Source of the DNA: Ktedonobacteria bacterium
GTDB lineage: Bacteria > Chloroflexota > Ktedonobacteria > Ktedonobacterales > JACDGC01
NCBI GenBank assembly: GCA_027459705.1
Contig: DAIDHM010000065.1
Span: 548-64,547 of the forward strand
Length of the DNA stretch: 64,000 nucleotides
Direction of reading: 5' to 3'
Shown here in pieces: positions 48,287 to 55,812 of the stretch (positions are counted from its first letter, which is position 1; every line of letters starts with the position of its first letter). The translations under genes were made by a program, and so were the position numbers. Under the pieces are notes generated by a model that saw only the letters and a list, made by a program, of their open reading frames with translations, searched no databases and was not told the origin of the DNA.

Positions 48287-51200
48287 ATGGAATTCCCCGA
48301 TCATGATCTCTTGCGTGGTCTGAACGACGAACAGCGCCAGGCTGTCACCACTACAGAAGGGCCGGTCCTGATTCTCGCTGGGCCTGGTTCGGGCAAGACC
48401 CGCGTCATTACACATCGCATCGCTTACTTGATTCAGGAGGTCGGCGTCAAACCCTGGCATATCTTGGCCGTCACGTTTACCAATAAAGCCGCCCGTGAGA
48501 TGCGCGACCGCCTGGAAACCCTGGTGGGCATCGCCGCTCGTGACCTGAACGTTGGCACCTTTCATAGCATCTGTGCGCGTGTCCTGCGCGGCAAAGCCGG
48601 TGAGGCTGGCCCGTATTTCATCGAAACATTGGATTTTGGCCGGACGGGTGCCTTTACCATCCTGGATGAAGATGAGCAGGCAGTGATCATCCGCCAGGCG
48701 ATCAGAGATCTCAACATCAATGAGAAGCAGTATTCGACTCGAACTATTCAAGGAGCGATCTCGCGCGCTAAAAATGATCTGCTCACGGTCCGCCAATATG
48801 AGGAACATACCAGTAAATATATCGAAGAAATTGTTGCGCGTGTCTATCGCAAATATGATGAGCGCTTGCGCGAGATGAACGCTGTTGACTTCGATGATCT
48901 GATTTTCCTGACCCATGAACTCTGGCGGCGTAACCCCGACGCGCTGGCAAAAGCGATCGCGCGTTACCAATACATCCATGTCGATGAATTTCAGGATTGC
49001 AACGCCGCGCAATATTCACTGGTCCGCATGCTCGCTGTGGGCCATCATGGCTCCGGTGGGGTCACCCTGCCAGACCATCCTGAGGGTTGGCGCAATATTT
49101 GTGTGGTCGGTGACGAAGATCAATGCCTGGTCGCGGGGACACTGGTGACCATGGCCGATGGATCGACGCGCCCCATTGAAACGGTCCGCGTGGGTGAATT
49201 GGTCCGTTCGGGGTATGGGAGTGGTGTGTTCCAGCCTGCGCGAGTCATGGCAACAGCATCGCGACCTTATCAGGGCGTCGGTATCCGCATCACGCTACAA
49301 TCCGGACAAACACTGGAGACTACGCCTGAACATCTGCATTTCGCGGGATTCCAGGACACTCAGTGGCGTACATCAGATATGTTGCGTATGGATGGCAACC
49401 TCCAACCCAGCGCATCCTCAATACCCCCCGATGCAACGGGGAGCCACTCCCCCATTGGCCCTGTGCCAATCACTCGCCACACCAATCGCGTAATGCGCGC
49501 TGATTCTCACCGCGCACCCATAAAGTATGTATCACGCCTGGGAGTGGATCATTCGCCACATATCATCATCACCCTGTGTGGTGTTCGCCGGGGAACGGAA
49601 CCCATGCATCGCCTGACGCTCGTCGGAAGCGATCCGGATGCGCGTGAGACATTGCTCGCGCTGGGGGTGCCGGTGCGAAGTATACGGCGCAAACAAGCAG
49701 AGTGGCATGTGGAGGTCGCCATGCCGGATCTCGGGCAGATCCAGTCCTTCGCGCAGCGCATGCGACAAGCGGTTGGTGCCTCGGTCATGCAGGTCGCGCG
49801 GCTCGGGCGCGCGTCGTCCACGGTGGGCACGCTGCCCTGCATACCAGCGGCCGCCGTTCGTCCCGGCATGGTCATGTTCGACGCGCATGGTGAAAGGGCG
49901 ATCGTGGCAAGGGTCACGCCCATCCAGATCAGCGGGCAGGTATACGACCTGAACGTGCAGCATACGCATAATTTTATAGCCAATGGAATCGCGACGCACA
50001 ACTCGATCTACAGCTGGCGCGGAGCCAGCATCGAGAATATCATCAGCTTCGAGCGCGAGTTTCCGGAGCGGACCCGCATCATTCTCGGCCGTAACTACCG
50101 TTCGACGCAGACCATTCTGGACGCCGCGATGGAGGTCGTACGCAAGAACCCCGGCCGAATTGATAAAGATCTGTATACGGAACACGGGTCCGGTGAACGG
50201 ATCAGCATTCGCGAGGCGTACAACGAAGAAGACGAAGGGCGCATCGTCGTTGATACCATTCGCACCCTGGTGGCGCGCGGTGTGGTCAAATTGAAAGACT
50301 GCGCGGTGATGTATCGCACCAATGCGCAATCACGCGCGATTGAAGAGCAATTCCTGCGCGCTGGCGTGCCCTATGTGGTCATCGGATCGCGTAAATTCTA
50401 TGAGCGCAAAGAGATCCGTGATGTCATCGCCTATCTGCGCATCTTACAGAATCCCTTCGATGCACCAGCACTCCGCCGCATCATCAATGTACCGTCACGA
50501 AAAATTGGCGATGCTACCGTGCAACTGCTCATCACCTTCGCCAATGGGCGTGGCCTCAGCCCCGAGGATGCGATCGCCGTGATTGATGAGCACCCGACGT
50601 TGGCGACCCAGCCGAAAGCCGCGCTGGGCCGTTTTCTTGCGGTCCTGCGCGATCTGCGCGCCGATCAAGCCACCCTGGCATTGGACCACCTGATTGATCG
50701 CATTCTGGAACGGACCGGGTATGCCAGCGAGGTGCGCGATGGCACTGAAGAGGGTGATGAGCGCTGGCGCAATATCCTGGAACTGCGCCGCGTCGCCGAA
50801 GACTATCGCGAGATCGAACCGGCTGCCGCGTTACCCCTCTTTTTGGAGCAGATCGCGTTGATTGGGGGGGCCGACACAACCCAGTCCGCTAGCGATGACC
50901 CAGAATTAGTGCGCGAAGATCGCGACGCCGTCACATTGATTACCTTACATGCCGCCAAGGGACTAGAGTTTCCGGTCGTCTTTCTGGTAGGTATGGAGGA
51001 AGGGATCTTGCCACACAGCCGTTCAATGGAATCTTTGCAACAACTGGAAGAAGAGCGGCGGTTGACCTATGTGGGCATCACGCGCGCGATGCGGCAACTC
51101 TTTCTGATCTACGCACACCGCCGCTCGTACTATGGTGGAGATTCGATGTTGCAAGCGCCCTCGCGATTCCTGGGCGACATCCCATCACGATTGCTGGAAG

Positions 51201-51643
51201 AGGATGGGGAAAACCGCCCCGACAAAGCCAAATCACGAGCGCGGCCCACCAGTGGCGCACAGCCAGGAGGCGTGAGCAATGGAACGAGTGCACAGTGGTC
51301 CCCGCCGCGCCTCCCCACCACTGGCAACGGCACCGGGCCAGCGCCGTTCGTGCCGCGCGACCAGCGCCATCCTGGCCCTATCCCCACCCTCCCACCTACG
51401 GGGAGCGGCCTGACATCGCCTCGTGGGTCTAACGGGACCCCGCCGCCGCCTCCATCCGCGCCCGATACTACTCGCACTCCCAAACCCGGCGAGATCGTTC
51501 GGCATCGCATCTATGGCAAAGGCGTCGTCAAAAAGGTCATTGCCGAGCGTGATACGACGAGTGTTGAGGTCCTCTTCGAGCGCACTGGCGTTGGCACCAA
51601 GCTCCTGGATCTGGCTTTCGCCAATCTAGAGGTGCTGGATTAG
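48287..51643 (+). CDS. pcrA: ATP-dependent DNA helicase PcrA/UvrD, intein-containing, with Pro-rich linker and C-terminal Tudor-like domain
   Basis: LNDEQRQAV, Walker A AGPGSGKTRV, motif II HVDEFQDCN, motif III split by the intein, later motifs (VTLITLHAAKGLEFPVVFLVGMEEG, RRLTYVGITRA). The C-terminal GEIVRHRIYGKGVVKKV...VEVLF resembles the PcrA/UvrD C-terminal Tudor fold. Confidence 0.93.
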   Translation: MEFPDHDLLRGLNDEQRQAVTTTEGPVLILAGPGSGKTRVITHRIAYLIQEVGVKPWHILAVTFTNKAAREMRDRLETLVGIAARDLNVGTFHSICARVLRGKAGEAGPYFIETLDFGRTGAFTILDEDEQAVIIRQAIRDLNINEKQYSTRTIQGAISRAKNDLLTVRQYEEHTSKYIEEIVARVYRKYDERLREMNAVDFDDLIFLTHELWRRNPDALAKAIARYQYIHVDEFQDCNAAQYSLVRMLAVGHHGSGGVTLPDHPEGWRNICVVGDEDQCLVAGTLVTMADGSTRPIETVRVGELVRSGYGSGVFQPARVMATASRPYQGVGIRITLQSGQTLETTPEHLHFAGFQDTQWRTSDMLRMDGNLQPSASSIPPDATGSHSPIGPVPITRHTNRVMRADSHRAPIKYVSRLGVDHSPHIIITLCGVRRGTEPMHRLTLVGSDPDARETLLALGVPVRSIRRKQAEWHVEVAMPDLGQIQSFAQRMRQAVGASVMQVARLGRASSTVGTLPCIPAAAVRPGMVMFDAHGERAIVARVTPIQISGQVYDLNVQHTHNFIANGIATHNSIYSWRGASIENIISFEREFPERTRIILGRNYRSTQTILDAAMEVVRKNPGRIDKDLYTEHGSGERISIREAYNEEDEGRIVVDTIRTLVARGVVKLKDCAVMYRTNAQSRAIEEQFLRAGVPYVVIGSRKFYERKEIRDVIAYLRILQNPFDAPALRRIINVPSRKIGDATVQLLITFANGRGLSPEDAIAVIDEHPTLATQPKAALGRFLAVLRDLRADQATLALDHLIDRILERTGYASEVRDGTEEGDERWRNILELRRVAEDYREIEPAAALPLFLEQIALIGGADTTQSASDDPELVREDRDAVTLITLHAAKGLEFPVVFLVGMEEGILPHSRSMESLQQLEEERRLTYVGITRAMRQLFLIYAHRRSYYGGDSMLQAPSRFLGDIPSRLLEEDGENRPDKAKSRARPTSGAQPGGVSNGTSAQWSPPRLPTTGNGTGPAPFVPRDQRHPGPIPTLPPTGSGLTSPRGSNGTPPPPPSAPDTTRTPKPGEIVRHRIYGKGVVKKVIAERDTTSVEVLFERTGVGTKLLDLAFANLEVLD
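49124..50002 (+). mobile_element. Intein (293 aa) inserted in helicase motif III of PcrA/UvrD
   Basis: VVGDEDQ|CLVAGTLVTMADGS...TTPEHLHF...VYDLNVQHTHNFIANGIATHN|SIYSWRGA. It has Cys1, block B TxxH, a terminal His-Asn and a +1 Ser. Excision restores VGDEDQSIYSWRGA. Confidence 0.9.
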
Positions 51644-53025: not shown

Positions 53026-53214
53026 TGCTGTGCCGCCTTTCTCACTCTGCGCTTCCCCGCTGATAGGAGATGAGCTTTCCGTTGATCATCAACTATTCGC
53101 GAGAATTGTGCCCATACTCTAGGACAAATGTACTCTTCTTCGTATAGGACACAGGATTGGAGATCGGGCTATAATACTATCAATTCGAGACGGGGCAGAG
53201 GGGAGAGCAAAATC

Positions 53215-54024
53215 ATGTTGCTACGCTCGGTCGAAGTGCGGATGCCACCGGTGGCGATCCGCGATCGCTATCCCTTCACTGTACCGACCATCGCCGCGTT
53301 GCTGGGGCGGACGATCCCTTTCACAACGCCGATCACCTTCCTGGTGGGCGAGAATGGTTCAGGCAAATCGACCTTGCTGGAGGCCATGGCACTGGCAATT
53401 GGGTCGATTGCGCTGGGTCGGGATGATGGGGATCGGGATCGATCGTTGGTGGATACGCAACCATTGGCGGACCAGTTGCGTCTCGTCTGGAATCACAAGA
53501 CGAAGCGCGGCTTCTTTCTGCGCGCCGAAGATTTCTTTGGCTATGCGCAGCGCCTGAGCCTCATACGCGAAGAGTATCTGGCGGAGCTCAAGAAATTAGA
53601 CGAAGACACGACGCTGAGTAAGCGATCCCGCGACTACGCCAAGATGCCCTATGGCGCTGGGCTGGCTGACCTCCAACGGCTCTATGGACCAGGCCTGGAG
53701 CGCGTCTCGCACGGGGAAAGCTTTTTGCGCCTGATGCGATCGCGCATCAACGGACCCGGGCTGTACCTCTGTGACGAGCCCGAAGCGCCGCTCTCGCCGA
53801 TGCGACAACTGGCGCTCCTGACGCTGATTGAAGACGCGGCGCGCGAACACGGCGCGCAGTTCCTTATCGCCACCCATTCGCCCATTGTACTGGCGACACG
53901 CGGCGCGACCATCCTGGAATGTACTTCCAGTGGGTTGCGCGTGGTCGCCTATGGCGACCTCGAACATGTGCGCTTCACCCGTGATTTTTTACAGGCTCCA
54001 GACCAATTTCTCCAACATATCTGA
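53215..54024 (+). CDS. Stand-alone ABC-like AAA ATPase (COG3910-like predicted ATPase)
   Basis: Walker A GENGSGKSTLLEA, SHGESFL, Walker B LYLCDEPEAPLSP, H-loop ATHSP. The ORF opens at 53128. ATG 53215 is preferred on N-terminal length. Confidence 0.8.
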   Translation: MLLRSVEVRMPPVAIRDRYPFTVPTIAALLGRTIPFTTPITFLVGENGSGKSTLLEAMALAIGSIALGRDDGDRDRSLVDTQPLADQLRLVWNHKTKRGFFLRAEDFFGYAQRLSLIREEYLAELKKLDEDTTLSKRSRDYAKMPYGAGLADLQRLYGPGLERVSHGESFLRLMRSRINGPGLYLCDEPEAPLSPMRQLALLTLIEDAAREHGAQFLIATHSPIVLATRGATILECTSSGLRVVAYGDLEHVRFTRDFLQAPDQFLQHI

Positions 54025-54049
54025 AGTAGTTTATTCAGGAGGCCATTTC

Positions 54050-54397
54050 ATGTCTTCGCCAATCACCGAGAGTGGATCCCCTGCGGAAGATACCGCGTAT
54101 GCTACGGCACTCATCGATCAAGAGCGAAAGGATGCGCAGGCTGGATTGATCACCCTCGCCATCTTCTTCGGGTTGGGGACGATCGGGTCCATCATCATCG
54201 AGTTTTTCGTCGTGCGTGGACGCAGTCCAGCCGCGATTCCGCTGGGCATCTTGCTCCTGCTCATCGTTTTGAGCATCGGTCGGCGGGTCTGGCGTATCGC
54301 GCGGGCGATCTTCACCATGCGCCAGGCCTGGTCGGCAGGGAAATTAGCCGATGGTCGCGATGCGCTGGCCGTGGCCCGCGGTAACCGCCATGCCTGA
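54050..54397 (+). CDS. Small two-TM membrane protein, hypothetical
   Basis: ATG 54050 with a CAGGAGG RBS, 25 nt after the ATPase stop. TMs GLITLAIFFGLGTIGSIIIEFFVV and IPLGILLLLIVLSIG. Confidence 0.6.
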   Translation: MSSPITESGSPAEDTAYATALIDQERKDAQAGLITLAIFFGLGTIGSIIIEFFVVRGRSPAAIPLGILLLLIVLSIGRRVWRIARAIFTMRQAWSAGKLADGRDALAVARGNRHA

Positions 54398-54522
54398 AGA
54401 GCCACCGATGCGTCAGGCGTGGTCCTCACGCTCGACCATTGCGCCCGGCGACACGTACGAGGTACAGTGAGCATGCATCGTCACCATGCGCGCAAAATTC
54501 AACACAATGAGGTCCGTTCACC

Positions 54523-55812
54523 ATGCAGGATATCATCCCATCGATCGCGCCAGATCTCAGCGAAGCGCGGGAGCATTTTCCCGCCCTCAGCCAGGAGCAC
54601 CTGGGAAAACCAGTCGTCTTCTTCGATAACCCCGGAGGCACACAGGTCGCCAAACAGGTGATTGATGCCACCCTGGAGTATTATCTCTTCGCGAACGCCA
54701 ACACCCACGGAGCTTTCGCCACCAGCCAGCGCACCGACCTGATCATCCATGAGGCTCGCCTGGCAATGGCGGATATGCTGAATTGCGCGCCAGGTGAGAT
54801 AGTCTTTGGCGCCAACATGACCTCACTTACCTTCGCTCTCAGCCGAGCGTTAGGGCGCACGTTCCAGCCAGGCGATGAGATCGTGACCACCACCCTGGAC
54901 CATGATGCCAACATTGCCCCGTGGCGCGCGATTGCCCGCGACCGGGGGTTGGTCATACGTCAGGTGGATATCGATCCCGCAACGTGTACGTTGCACATGG
55001 AAGATCTGCGATCAAAAATCACCGCGCGCACGAAACTCGTCGCGGTCGGCTATGCGTCGAATGCGGTCGGGACGATCAACGATGTCGCGACGATTGTCCA
55101 GCTGGCCCATGCCGCTGGCGCGCTCTGCTGGATTGATGCTGTGCAATATGCGCCGCATGGGCCGATTGATGTCCAGTCGTTGGACTGTGATTTTTTGGTC
55201 TGCTCTGCCTACAAATTTTTTGGACCGCATCTGGGCATCCTCTATGGCAAGCAATCACTGCTCGATGCGCTGGCTCCCTATAAAGTACGGCCATCCAGCG
55301 ACGAGACACCGGATAAATTCGAGACGGGGACGCAGGCGCATGAGTTGTTGGCCGGGTTGTTAGGCGCTGTGGATTATCTGGCCCAGGTGGGCAATCGCTA
55401 CGCTGAGGCGCTCCCAGAGGTTGGTGCAGCCTACAGTGGACGCCGCCGGACGCTCAAGATAGCCATGGGCGCGATCCTGGCGTACGAACGGTCGCTCTCG
55501 GCGTACCTGCTGCCCTCGCTCGCCACACTGCCGGGTGTGACCATCTACGGACTCACGCGTCCCCAGGATGTCCGATTGCGGGTGCCTACCGTCGCGCTGA
55601 CCATGCGCGGCCATACCCCACGCCAATTGGCTGAGGCCCTGGCCGCGGCGGGCATCAACGCCTGGGATGGGAATTACTACGCGATCGAGTTGATGGATCG
55701 CCTGGGATTAGAGGCACAGGGCGGCGCATTGCGCTTAGGTCTGGCGCATTACAACACCACTGAAGAGATCGACCGTTGCGTTGCCGTGCTGCGTGAGGTG
55801 GGGCGTGCATGA
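54523..55812 (+). CDS. Class-V aminotransferase, cysteine desulfurase-like family protein
   Basis: FPALSQ...VVFFDNPGGTQVAKQVIDA at the N-terminus, CSAYKFFGPHLG (PLP-Lys region), HYNTTEEIDR at the C-terminus. It resembles the VC1184-type cysteine desulfurase family subgroup. Confidence 0.82.
   Translation: MQDIIPSIAPDLSEAREHFPALSQEHLGKPVVFFDNPGGTQVAKQVIDATLEYYLFANANTHGAFATSQRTDLIIHEARLAMADMLNCAPGEIVFGANMTSLTFALSRALGRTFQPGDEIVTTTLDHDANIAPWRAIARDRGLVIRQVDIDPATCTLHMEDLRSKITARTKLVAVGYASNAVGTINDVATIVQLAHAAGALCWIDAVQYAPHGPIDVQSLDCDFLVCSAYKFFGPHLGILYGKQSLLDALAPYKVRPSSDETPDKFETGTQAHELLAGLLGAVDYLAQVGNRYAEALPEVGAAYSGRRRTLKIAMGAILAYERSLSAYLLPSLATLPGVTIYGLTRPQDVRLRVPTVALTMRGHTPRQLAEALAAAGINAWDGNYYAIELMDRLGLEAQGGALRLGLAHYNTTEEIDRCVAVLREVGRA

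Follow-up and report, generated by a model that had tools for sequence, protein, structure and literature searches.

The 64,000 nucleotides of Ktedonobacteria bacterium DNA analyzed here (contig DAIDHM010000065.1, positions 548 to 64,547), termed the window below, contain an open reading frame (ORF) for a PcrA/UvrD helicase in which motif III, a signature of superfamily 1 (SF1) helicases, is split by 293 additional codons. What is this insert, and which of its activities does it retain? An earlier note, made from the sequence, had proposed an intein whose middle region was either a degenerating homing endonuclease or an uncharacterized inserted domain. The best explanation, with a probability of roughly 0.8, is that the chromosomal pcrA/uvrD gene of a Ktedonobacteria-like Chloroflexota bacterium contains a class-1 intein that was inherited vertically and has reached a late, 'homing-dead' stage, one that most likely still splices and most likely can no longer cut DNA or home. 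As full-length relatives of this intein carry an N-module, a middle part and a C-module between the two halves of their Hint domain, the parts of the window copy are named accordingly:

48287-51643, + strand: pcrA/uvrD precursor ORF, uninterrupted, 1118 amino acids (aa) with the intein and 825 aa predicted after splicing
48287-49123, + strand: N-extein, ORF aa 1-279, the last residues (NICVVGDEDQ) being the first half of SF1 motif III
49124-50002, + strand: class-1 intein, 293 aa, ORF codons 280-572
49124-49126, 49322-49324, 49331-49333 and 49997-50002, + strand: the key intein residues Cys1, Thr67, His70 and His292-Asn293, respectively
49124-49348, + strand: N-terminal Hint half, intein aa 1-75, blocks A and B, ending in TPEHxHFAG; Hint, Hom_end_hint and intein_Nterm matches
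49349-49558, + strand: spacer, 70 aa, intein aa 76-145; no match to the hidden Markov models (HMMs) of the N-module and middle part
49559-49807, + strand: retained C-module, intein aa 146-228 (HIIITLCGVRRGTEPMHRL...WHVE...VARLG); matched by the C-module HMM
49808-50002, + strand: short linker and C-terminal Hint half, intein aa 229-293, blocks F and G, ending in THN
50003-51643, + strand: C-extein, up to and including the stop codon, with the +1 Ser at 50003-50005 and SIYSWRGA as the second half of motif III

A class-1 intein within motif III of PcrA

Translation of positions 49064-50062 (...NICVVGDEDQ / CLVAGTLVTMADGSTRPIETV ... TTPEHLHF ... VYDLNVQHTHNFIANGIATHN / SIYSWRGASIENI) reproduces exactly the peptide on which the earlier note was based. 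The insert begins with CLVAGT, providing Cys1, has T67-P-E-H70 as block B and ends with GIATHN followed by Ser+1. Searches with Hint and intein profiles, which the note had suggested, place it above the cut-offs of both Pfam Intein_splicing (PF14890; 43.5 bits, gathering cut-off 35.8) and TIGR01443 intein_Cterm (28.4, cut-off 15.6), and two mini-inteins of solved structure, Pho RadA (4E2U; matched by phmmer at E 8.6e-5) and Spl DnaX (7CFV), align to intein residues 237-293. Excision of 49124-50002 does, as had been claimed, restore motif III. After splicing of the ORF in silico, no gap is needed at the junction to align it to the crystallized PcrA of G. stearothermophilus (1PJR/3PJR; nicvvgdedqsiyswrga / NICAVGDADQSIYRWRGA, E 1e-35), and also to the sequences of the UvrD (2IS1) and Rep structures. 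Such a gapless match after removal of 293 codons means that the boundaries are exact and that the feature is no chance resemblance. The window intein keeps 55 of the 58 positions that are conserved in ≥90% of the family, including all of the catalytic positions, with Cys1, Thr67, His70, Asp275, His292 and Asn293 among those kept. The three departures are R62Q, S66T and F239C, of which only the first two are in the N-terminal Hint half. PcrA is thus interrupted, at SF1 motif III, by a true class-1 intein. Nothing in its sequence points to a splicing defect, and it is almost certainly splicing-competent.

In the mechanism envisaged, the gene would be translated into an 1118-aa precursor within which intein residues 1-75 and ~237-293 would fold into the Hint horseshoe. 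Cys1, aided by Thr67 and His70 of block B, would carry out an N-S acyl shift at the Gln279-Cys280 bond, and the resulting thioester would be transferred to the hydroxyl of Ser+1. Cyclization of Asn293, aided by His292 and by Asp275 of block F, would then release the intein, and an O-N shift would restore the peptide bond, recreating motif III (VGDEDQSIYSWRGA) in an active 825-aa helicase. The Hint fold and class-1 chemistry predicted here are those of both LAGLIDADG inteins (PI-SceI, Mtu RecA) and mini-inteins (Pho RadA 4E2U, Spl DnaX 7CFV).

The insert could instead be an ordinary lineage-specific insertion, or a non-splicing Hint domain of the bacterial intein-like (BIL) type, with the helicase functioning as the 1118-aa protein or the gene being a pseudogene. 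This would be in keeping with the fact that splicing is here read from the sequence. The insertion, however, separates the Q from the S of motif III, and the crystallized PcrA and UvrD proteins are gapless across this junction; as a motif that is contiguous in those proteins is split, the unspliced product is unlikely to be a working helicase. The ORF is also intact, and the residues for class-1 splicing are all present and are conserved across 77 relatives. BIL domains are not known to have the His-Asn plus +1 nucleophile arrangement. With this evidence, a non-splicing insert is the least probable of the explanations considered, and very improbable.

Relatives of the intein at the same site

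A scan of one genome per GTDB species revealed relatives of the intein encoded in 487 species genomes from many phyla, and the best 80 loci were kept, of which 77 were extractable. The 80 loci include representatives from the Ktedonobacterales, Thermoleophilia/Solirubrobacterales, Rubrobacter, Gaiellales, Acidimicrobiia, Holophagaceae, Dormibacterota, Saccharibacteria, Gemmatimonadaceae and Trueperaceae, and several from Proteobacteria, including the isolate Roseomonas genomospecies 6 ATCC 49961. In all 77 extracted inteins the insertion point is identical, after the Q and before the S or C of motif III (VGDxxQ / C...THN / S[IV]Yx[WF]R), and all but one (76/77) are free of stop codons. The earlier note had considered that orthologues might carry the same segment without Cys1 and His-Asn, as an ordinary insertion; both are present in every one of the 77, as is a Ser or Cys at position +1. 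The +1 residue is Cys (THN / CIYTWR) in two Candidatus Saccharibacteria metagenome-assembled genomes (MAGs; L042 and L051) and Ser in all other extracted relatives, and the intein family therefore works with either nucleophile. Two contigs of one MAG (MFD05567.bin.3.543; L028 and L029) each have a copy of a 357-aa intein, in one case at the contig end, consistent with either a gene duplication or assembly redundancy.

When the intein was used in a protein search, only fragments of UvrD/PcrA genes with the same insertion were obtained. Many of the database proteins of the family (P0019, P0022, P0026, P0036, P0013 and others) are short despite being encoded on long contigs, and these fragments have either the Met of ...HMTYLMW... 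as their first residue or, at their end, out-of-frame sequence rich in Ser, Thr and Arg. They look like the products of frameshift errors in long-read MAG assemblies, many of them 'MFD' bins, and not like free-standing endonuclease genes. A profile search of 1.84 billion representatives returned, among the 150 matches listed (all with E ≤ 6e-77), mostly long proteins that span nearly the whole profile, the remainder being fragments; as the profile (453 positions) had taken in UvrD and Hint columns, these counts are not specific for the nested domain.

The nested domain of full-length relatives

Lengths of the extracted inteins range from 211 to 373 aa. There is a full-length mode at 357-373 aa (42 sequences), in which the nested domain is intact (42 of the 76 extracted relatives), and a continuous tail of shorter forms (211-350 aa) that includes the 293-aa window intein. 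The nested domain is ~225 aa long and extends from TPEHxHFAG to SLPFxPAxxVRPGM, the start of the C-terminal Hint half. In 41 of the full-length sequences, 18 of its positions are invariant and 29 nearly invariant, with charged residues among those that are invariant. AlphaFold2 predicts a beta-hairpin, helix, strand and helix for the N-module and two helices for the middle part, these together having a predicted local distance difference test (pLDDT) score of 93.3 and a predicted template modeling score of 0.85; for the C-module, modeled in the family member P0038, it predicts a beta-hairpin/alpha/beta/alpha/beta fold with block-mean pLDDT values mostly >90. On the strength of these models and of the invariant positions, the nested domain is a real folded domain.

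Its identity is less readily assigned. With the 41 full-length members, no Pfam family was matched in common by more than two, and NCBIfam and PHROGs provided no match. A profile search of the PDB gave a best E of 0.68. Foldseek comparisons to the PDB gave, for the N-module plus middle part, a best E of 0.72 and, for the whole nested domain, only insignificant LAGLIDADG matches (the best being I-OnuI, with E 0.027, a template modeling score of 0.17 and a root-mean-square deviation of 17 A). LAGLIDADG inteins resemble this family in having a domain nested between blocks B and F, and in the decay of the endonuclease, during the homing cycle, towards mini-inteins. The window family differs from them in having neither a LAGLIDADG nor an HNH motif or profile match, in keeping with the earlier note, which had seen neither motif in the middle region of the window intein. 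A LAGLIDADG identity was rejected as no LAGLIDADG or Hom_end profile matches the window intein or the 41 full-length members, and the similarity to I-OnuI and I-LtrI is not significant. An HNH or His-Me finger nuclease was likewise rejected, with no Pfam match at E ≤ 1 and no HNH structure among the Foldseek matches. An internal duplication, with the N-module and C-module as the repeats, is also unsupported (hhalign P = 0.12).

The N-module has a predicted beta-beta-alpha-beta-alpha topology, with a conserved Y, an aromatic-x-x-G, an R and an E, which resembles the arrangement in GIY-YIG nucleases. A Foldseek search of predicted viral structures (BFVD) gave three strong matches, to a 924-aa protein, a Myoviridae 'adenine methyltransferase' and a Siphoviridae 'DNA 3'-5' helicase', with ~12 GIY-YIG or Seg-like phage homing endonucleases in the weak tail (E 0.04-0.5). 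Profiles for GIY-YIG and AP2 domains were built from PDB-verified or GenBank-derived sequences and compared with the N-module by hhalign. The match to an I-TevI-like profile of 10 sequences had a P of 0.53, Pfam provided no GIY-YIG match and none was present in the top 50 PDB Foldseek matches. For AP2/ERF the P was 0.011 with a probability of 3.7%, as compared with a P of 0.053 in an AP2-versus-GIY-YIG control, and the TEM1 AP2 domain was at rank 26 in the Foldseek list (E 3.3). The GIY-YIG-like topology and residue pattern of the modeled N-module are a lead only, and neither a GIY-YIG nor an AP2 assignment is supported.

Related inteins in phages

The same domain is also present in phages. 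A scan of IMG/VR identified 33 viral loci with an N-module, with or without the middle part, located directly after a block-B-like TxxH within large ORFs, the exteins being phage UvrD-type helicases, a Mu-like portal protein and an N6/N4 DNA methylase. Two of these loci, L092 (2933-6277) and L090 (444-2633), have N-module inteins in the Mu-like portal protein and in the N6/N4 DNA methylase, which has a ParB-like N-terminus. There are matches in 69 GenBank phage records, and the N-module is also present in Streptococcus suis prophage proteins that are annotated in GenBank as 'adenine-specific methyltransferases' and not as intein-containing. Among the 69 is gp34.33 of Bacillus phage SPO1, a UvrD-type helicase with a 275-aa intein annotated since 2009 (GenBank FJ230960), and the same intein annotation exists for phage CampHawk (PMC3868849).

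The SPO1 and window inteins have the same insertion point (LVGDDDQ / C...VTHN / SMYSFRGA in SPO1) and the same class-1 terminal residues. The SPO1 host protein is, however, a phage helicase whereas the window intein is in a chromosomal pcrA, and their nested regions differ. SPO1 has an N-module and middle part, homologous to those of the full-length bacterial relatives, and no C-module; the window intein has only the C-module. The N-module plus middle part is the portion common to all these inteins, and the N-module travels between exteins, as would a mobile module. In the bacterial PcrA lineage, and in at least one viral protein, a C-module has been added.

Bacterial PcrA/UvrD proteins from at least 10 phyla, and phage UvrD-type helicases, portal proteins and DNA methylases, have the nested domain. 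It may represent a class of homing endonuclease, carried by inteins, that has so far gone unclassified. The N-module would be catalytic, with a fold that is either new or GIY-YIG-like but diverged beyond detection, the bacterial C-module would have been kept under purifying selection after loss of the nuclease as it is needed for splicing or has been co-opted, and the window copy would be a nuclease-dead, C-module-only intermediate. We propose this tentatively, as a possibility to which we give somewhat less than an even chance. According to Dassa et al. (2009), GIY-YIG domains were not known inside inteins.

Decay of the nested domain and the middle region of the window intein

The ~157 aa between the Hint halves of the window intein, at the usual insertion point for an endonuclease, are the remains of the ~225-aa nested domain, which in full-length relatives is presumably the homing endonuclease of the intein family. 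An unrecognizable 70-aa spacer has taken the place of the N-module and middle part, leaving the C-module as sole survivor. Of the two possibilities offered in the earlier note, a degenerating homing endonuclease and an uncharacterized inserted domain, both apply, as they describe one thing, the remnant of an unclassified nested domain; its nuclease nature is presumptive. The non-Hint insert is, however, ~155-160 aa (intein residues 76 to ~232) and not the 190 aa first estimated, as the alignment to the C-terminal Hint half of the mini-inteins already begins at residue 237 (LPCIPAAAVRPGMVMF...). Neither of the sequences that had been regarded as decayed LAGLIDADG traces is one: HFAG is part of the family-invariant Hint motif TPEHxHFAG, and 'ETLLALGVPVRSI' corresponds to a helix and strand that are conserved in the family C-module (consensus xALExLGLSVRPA).

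The order of loss emerged when HMMs of the three parts were run on the 77 inteins. The N-module is lost first and the middle part next, whereas the C-module is kept in 71 of 76, and the five shortest inteins (211-259 aa) have lost most of it. The window intein has no N-module or middle-part score and a C-module score of 84.2 bits (E 1.5e-27, HMM positions 8-90). A search of the window intein DNA in all six frames found no remnant of the N-module or middle part, and a frameshift-scrambled remnant was rejected on this basis. The middle region of the window intein has nothing above chance in Pfam, NCBIfam or PHROGs. The spacer (intein residues 76-145) cannot be aligned to relatives, is rich in Ser, Pro, Arg, Asp and Thr with 24% hydrophobic residues, and is probably disordered; the structure of the window C-module is that predicted from the homologous P0038 model. 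With no N-module or middle-part match in any frame and 84 bits for the C-module, the sequence of the window copy is that of a degenerate family member that has kept the site and the homologous Hint domain together with an incomplete nested domain. Full-length relatives (L013, L074, L078, L007, L041 and others, from Ktedonobacterales, Thermoleophilia, Rubrobacter, Roseomonas genomospecies 6 and others) are inserted at the same site, have Hint domains that are 56-62% identical to the Ktedonobacterial copies, and share the C-module. They differ from the window intein in being 357-373 aa long, versus 293 aa, in having both the N-module and middle part, versus neither, and in having no C-module deviations, versus four.

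These deviations were scored at the 20 C-module columns with ≥90% conservation in full-length inteins. The median number is 0 in inteins with an N-module versus 4 in those without (Mann-Whitney 3e-5), and the Asp of LCGD is kept in 41/42 inteins with an N-module versus 7/18 of those without (Fisher 1e-6). These comparisons are partly circular, as the columns were defined on the full-length set, and they ignore phylogenetic non-independence. In the window C-module the four deviations include LCGD to LCGV and WR to WH (the Arg of WRxE to His), whereas the fold-type residues (L, C, H, G, W, ARG) are conserved with and without an N-module, and also in the window. The position-specific pattern is nevertheless clear, in that certain C-module residues matter only while the N-module is present, which ties the C-module to the activity that was lost. 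Since the N-module and middle part are gone, and the C-module is substituted at near-invariant positions, homing by the window intein has presumably been lost.

The circularity noted above is one of several points that weigh against the homing-dead explanation. Splicing is deduced from intact motifs and from the position of the intein within an indispensable helicase motif. The nested domain has no recognizable nuclease motif and matches no known nuclease, and the designation 'homing endonuclease' is taken entirely from its position, distribution and pattern of decay. The ratio of nonsynonymous to synonymous substitution rates (dN/dS) for the C-module is 0.13-0.56 in pairs of inteins without an N-module, as compared with 0.14-0.34 for their Hint parts. 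Values this low indicate that the C-module is still under purifying selection, is not simply decaying junk and may have some role.

The C-module could therefore be retained for a function of its own, as a structural brace for Hint folding and splicing or as a DNA-binding, protein-binding or redox-sensing module that makes PcrA maturation conditional, in which case the middle region of the window intein would be functional. Consistent with this, the module is retained in 71 of 76 relatives, including 18 from which the N-module is wholly lost, its fold-defining residues (L, C, H, G, W, A-R-G) are nearly invariant in the copies without an N-module and in the window, and its dN/dS equals that of the Hint domain in one clade. 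Novikova et al. 2016 (PMC4760082) have proposed that inteins in ATPase domains act as sensors. The module is, however, not universally required, as the five relatives (211-259 aa) that lack most of it keep all of the splicing residues, and SPO1-type phage inteins at the same site do not have it. The relaxation of specific positions after N-module loss also links the C-module to the function that was lost, and no search pointed to a ligand or partner. We regard a separate function for the C-module as rather unlikely, with a chance of perhaps one in four.

It is also conceivable that the intein is still mobile, with the spacer and C-module constituting a minimal or divergent endonuclease, or with an endonuclease encoded in another frame or on the antisense strand. 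Out-of-frame and antisense endonucleases exist inside some actinophage inteins (bioRxiv 10.1101/2025.01.02.630785), and the four long ORFs that overlap the window intein (49158-49493, +; 49532-50329, -; 49549-50001, -; 49638-49952, +) were checked for this reason. Such ORFs are, however, expected in 60% GC DNA, and none of the four has a meaningful Pfam match, the sole match being at chance level (E 0.025, below the cut-off). The N-module plus middle part, the only portion in common with the phage inteins, is absent from all six frames, and near-invariant residues of the C-module are substituted. Continued mobility is accordingly highly improbable.

The host gene and its surroundings

Pfam identifies UvrD-helicase (12-280), UvrD_C (599-944) and PcrA_UvrD tudor (1068-1107) domains in the ORF, and the TIGR01073 (pcrA) match is split into two, with one piece on each side of residues 280-572. 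An exact look-up of the protein returned no record. The neighboring genes, which encode a PfkB kinase, a LuxR-type two-component pair, an ABC-2 transporter, a BNR-repeat protein, an ABC ATPase and a class-V aminotransferase, are ordinary chromosomal genes with no mobile-element gene among them. The intein and C-extein have similar GC contents (0.605 and 0.596), and pcrA/uvrD is a resident chromosomal gene here. The most closely related exteins (68-71% identity; locus L004) are also interrupted by a decayed intein, of 285 aa, and the next closest (59-64% identity) are from Ktedonobacteria and Chloroflexia MAGs, some with full-length and some with decayed inteins. The presence of both forms among the closest exteins fits with vertical inheritance and independent decay. 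Locus L004 (JAJPKG010000026.1) is from a MAG designated 'Proteobacteria bacterium', a taxonomic label that may be wrong as all of the next closest exteins are from Ktedonobacteria or Chloroflexia, and its intein retains a faint trace of the N-module (RAMIMQRACRELNLSAW).

When compared with PcrA of G. stearothermophilus, the N-extein contains 15 additional aa (GHHGSGGVTLPDHPE-like) in the region of residues ~232-268 (window 48980-49090), just 5' of motif III. A long, low-complexity linker rich in Pro, Gly, Ser and Thr (PcrA ~955-1065, window ~51150-51490) separates the helicase core from the C-terminal tudor domain. Downstream, at 53128-55812 on the + strand, the ORF for the ABC-type ATPase and that for the class-V, cysteine-desulfurase-like aminotransferase may belong to a Suf-type gene cluster for Fe-S assembly; SufB is among the classic hosts of inteins. 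A search across the window revealed no tRNA genes.

Known inteins and significance

Inteins in UvrD and PcrA are already known. Novikova et al. 2016 (PMC4760082) catalogued 16 UvrD inteins in five phyla, which share with the window intein both the host protein family and a preference for motifs of ATPase domains; P-loop insertions in PcrA/UvrD are mentioned in a later review (PMC5874633), and the exact site occupied here is annotated in SPO1. What is less ordinary is at the level of the family, namely a very widespread, unclassified nested domain and a C-module retained by selection after the remainder of this domain was lost.

For annotation, the 1118-aa product is best described as an intein-containing PcrA/UvrD with an 825-aa mature form, and with the intein flagged as endonuclease-degenerate. 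If the nested domain is a nuclease, it would add a family to the short list of homing endonucleases and could provide a scaffold for sequence-specific DNA cleavage. The window copy is one step in a graded series of decay, and this series offers clean natural data on the homing-cycle model, with which it can be asked why part of an endonuclease persists once the catalytic part is gone.

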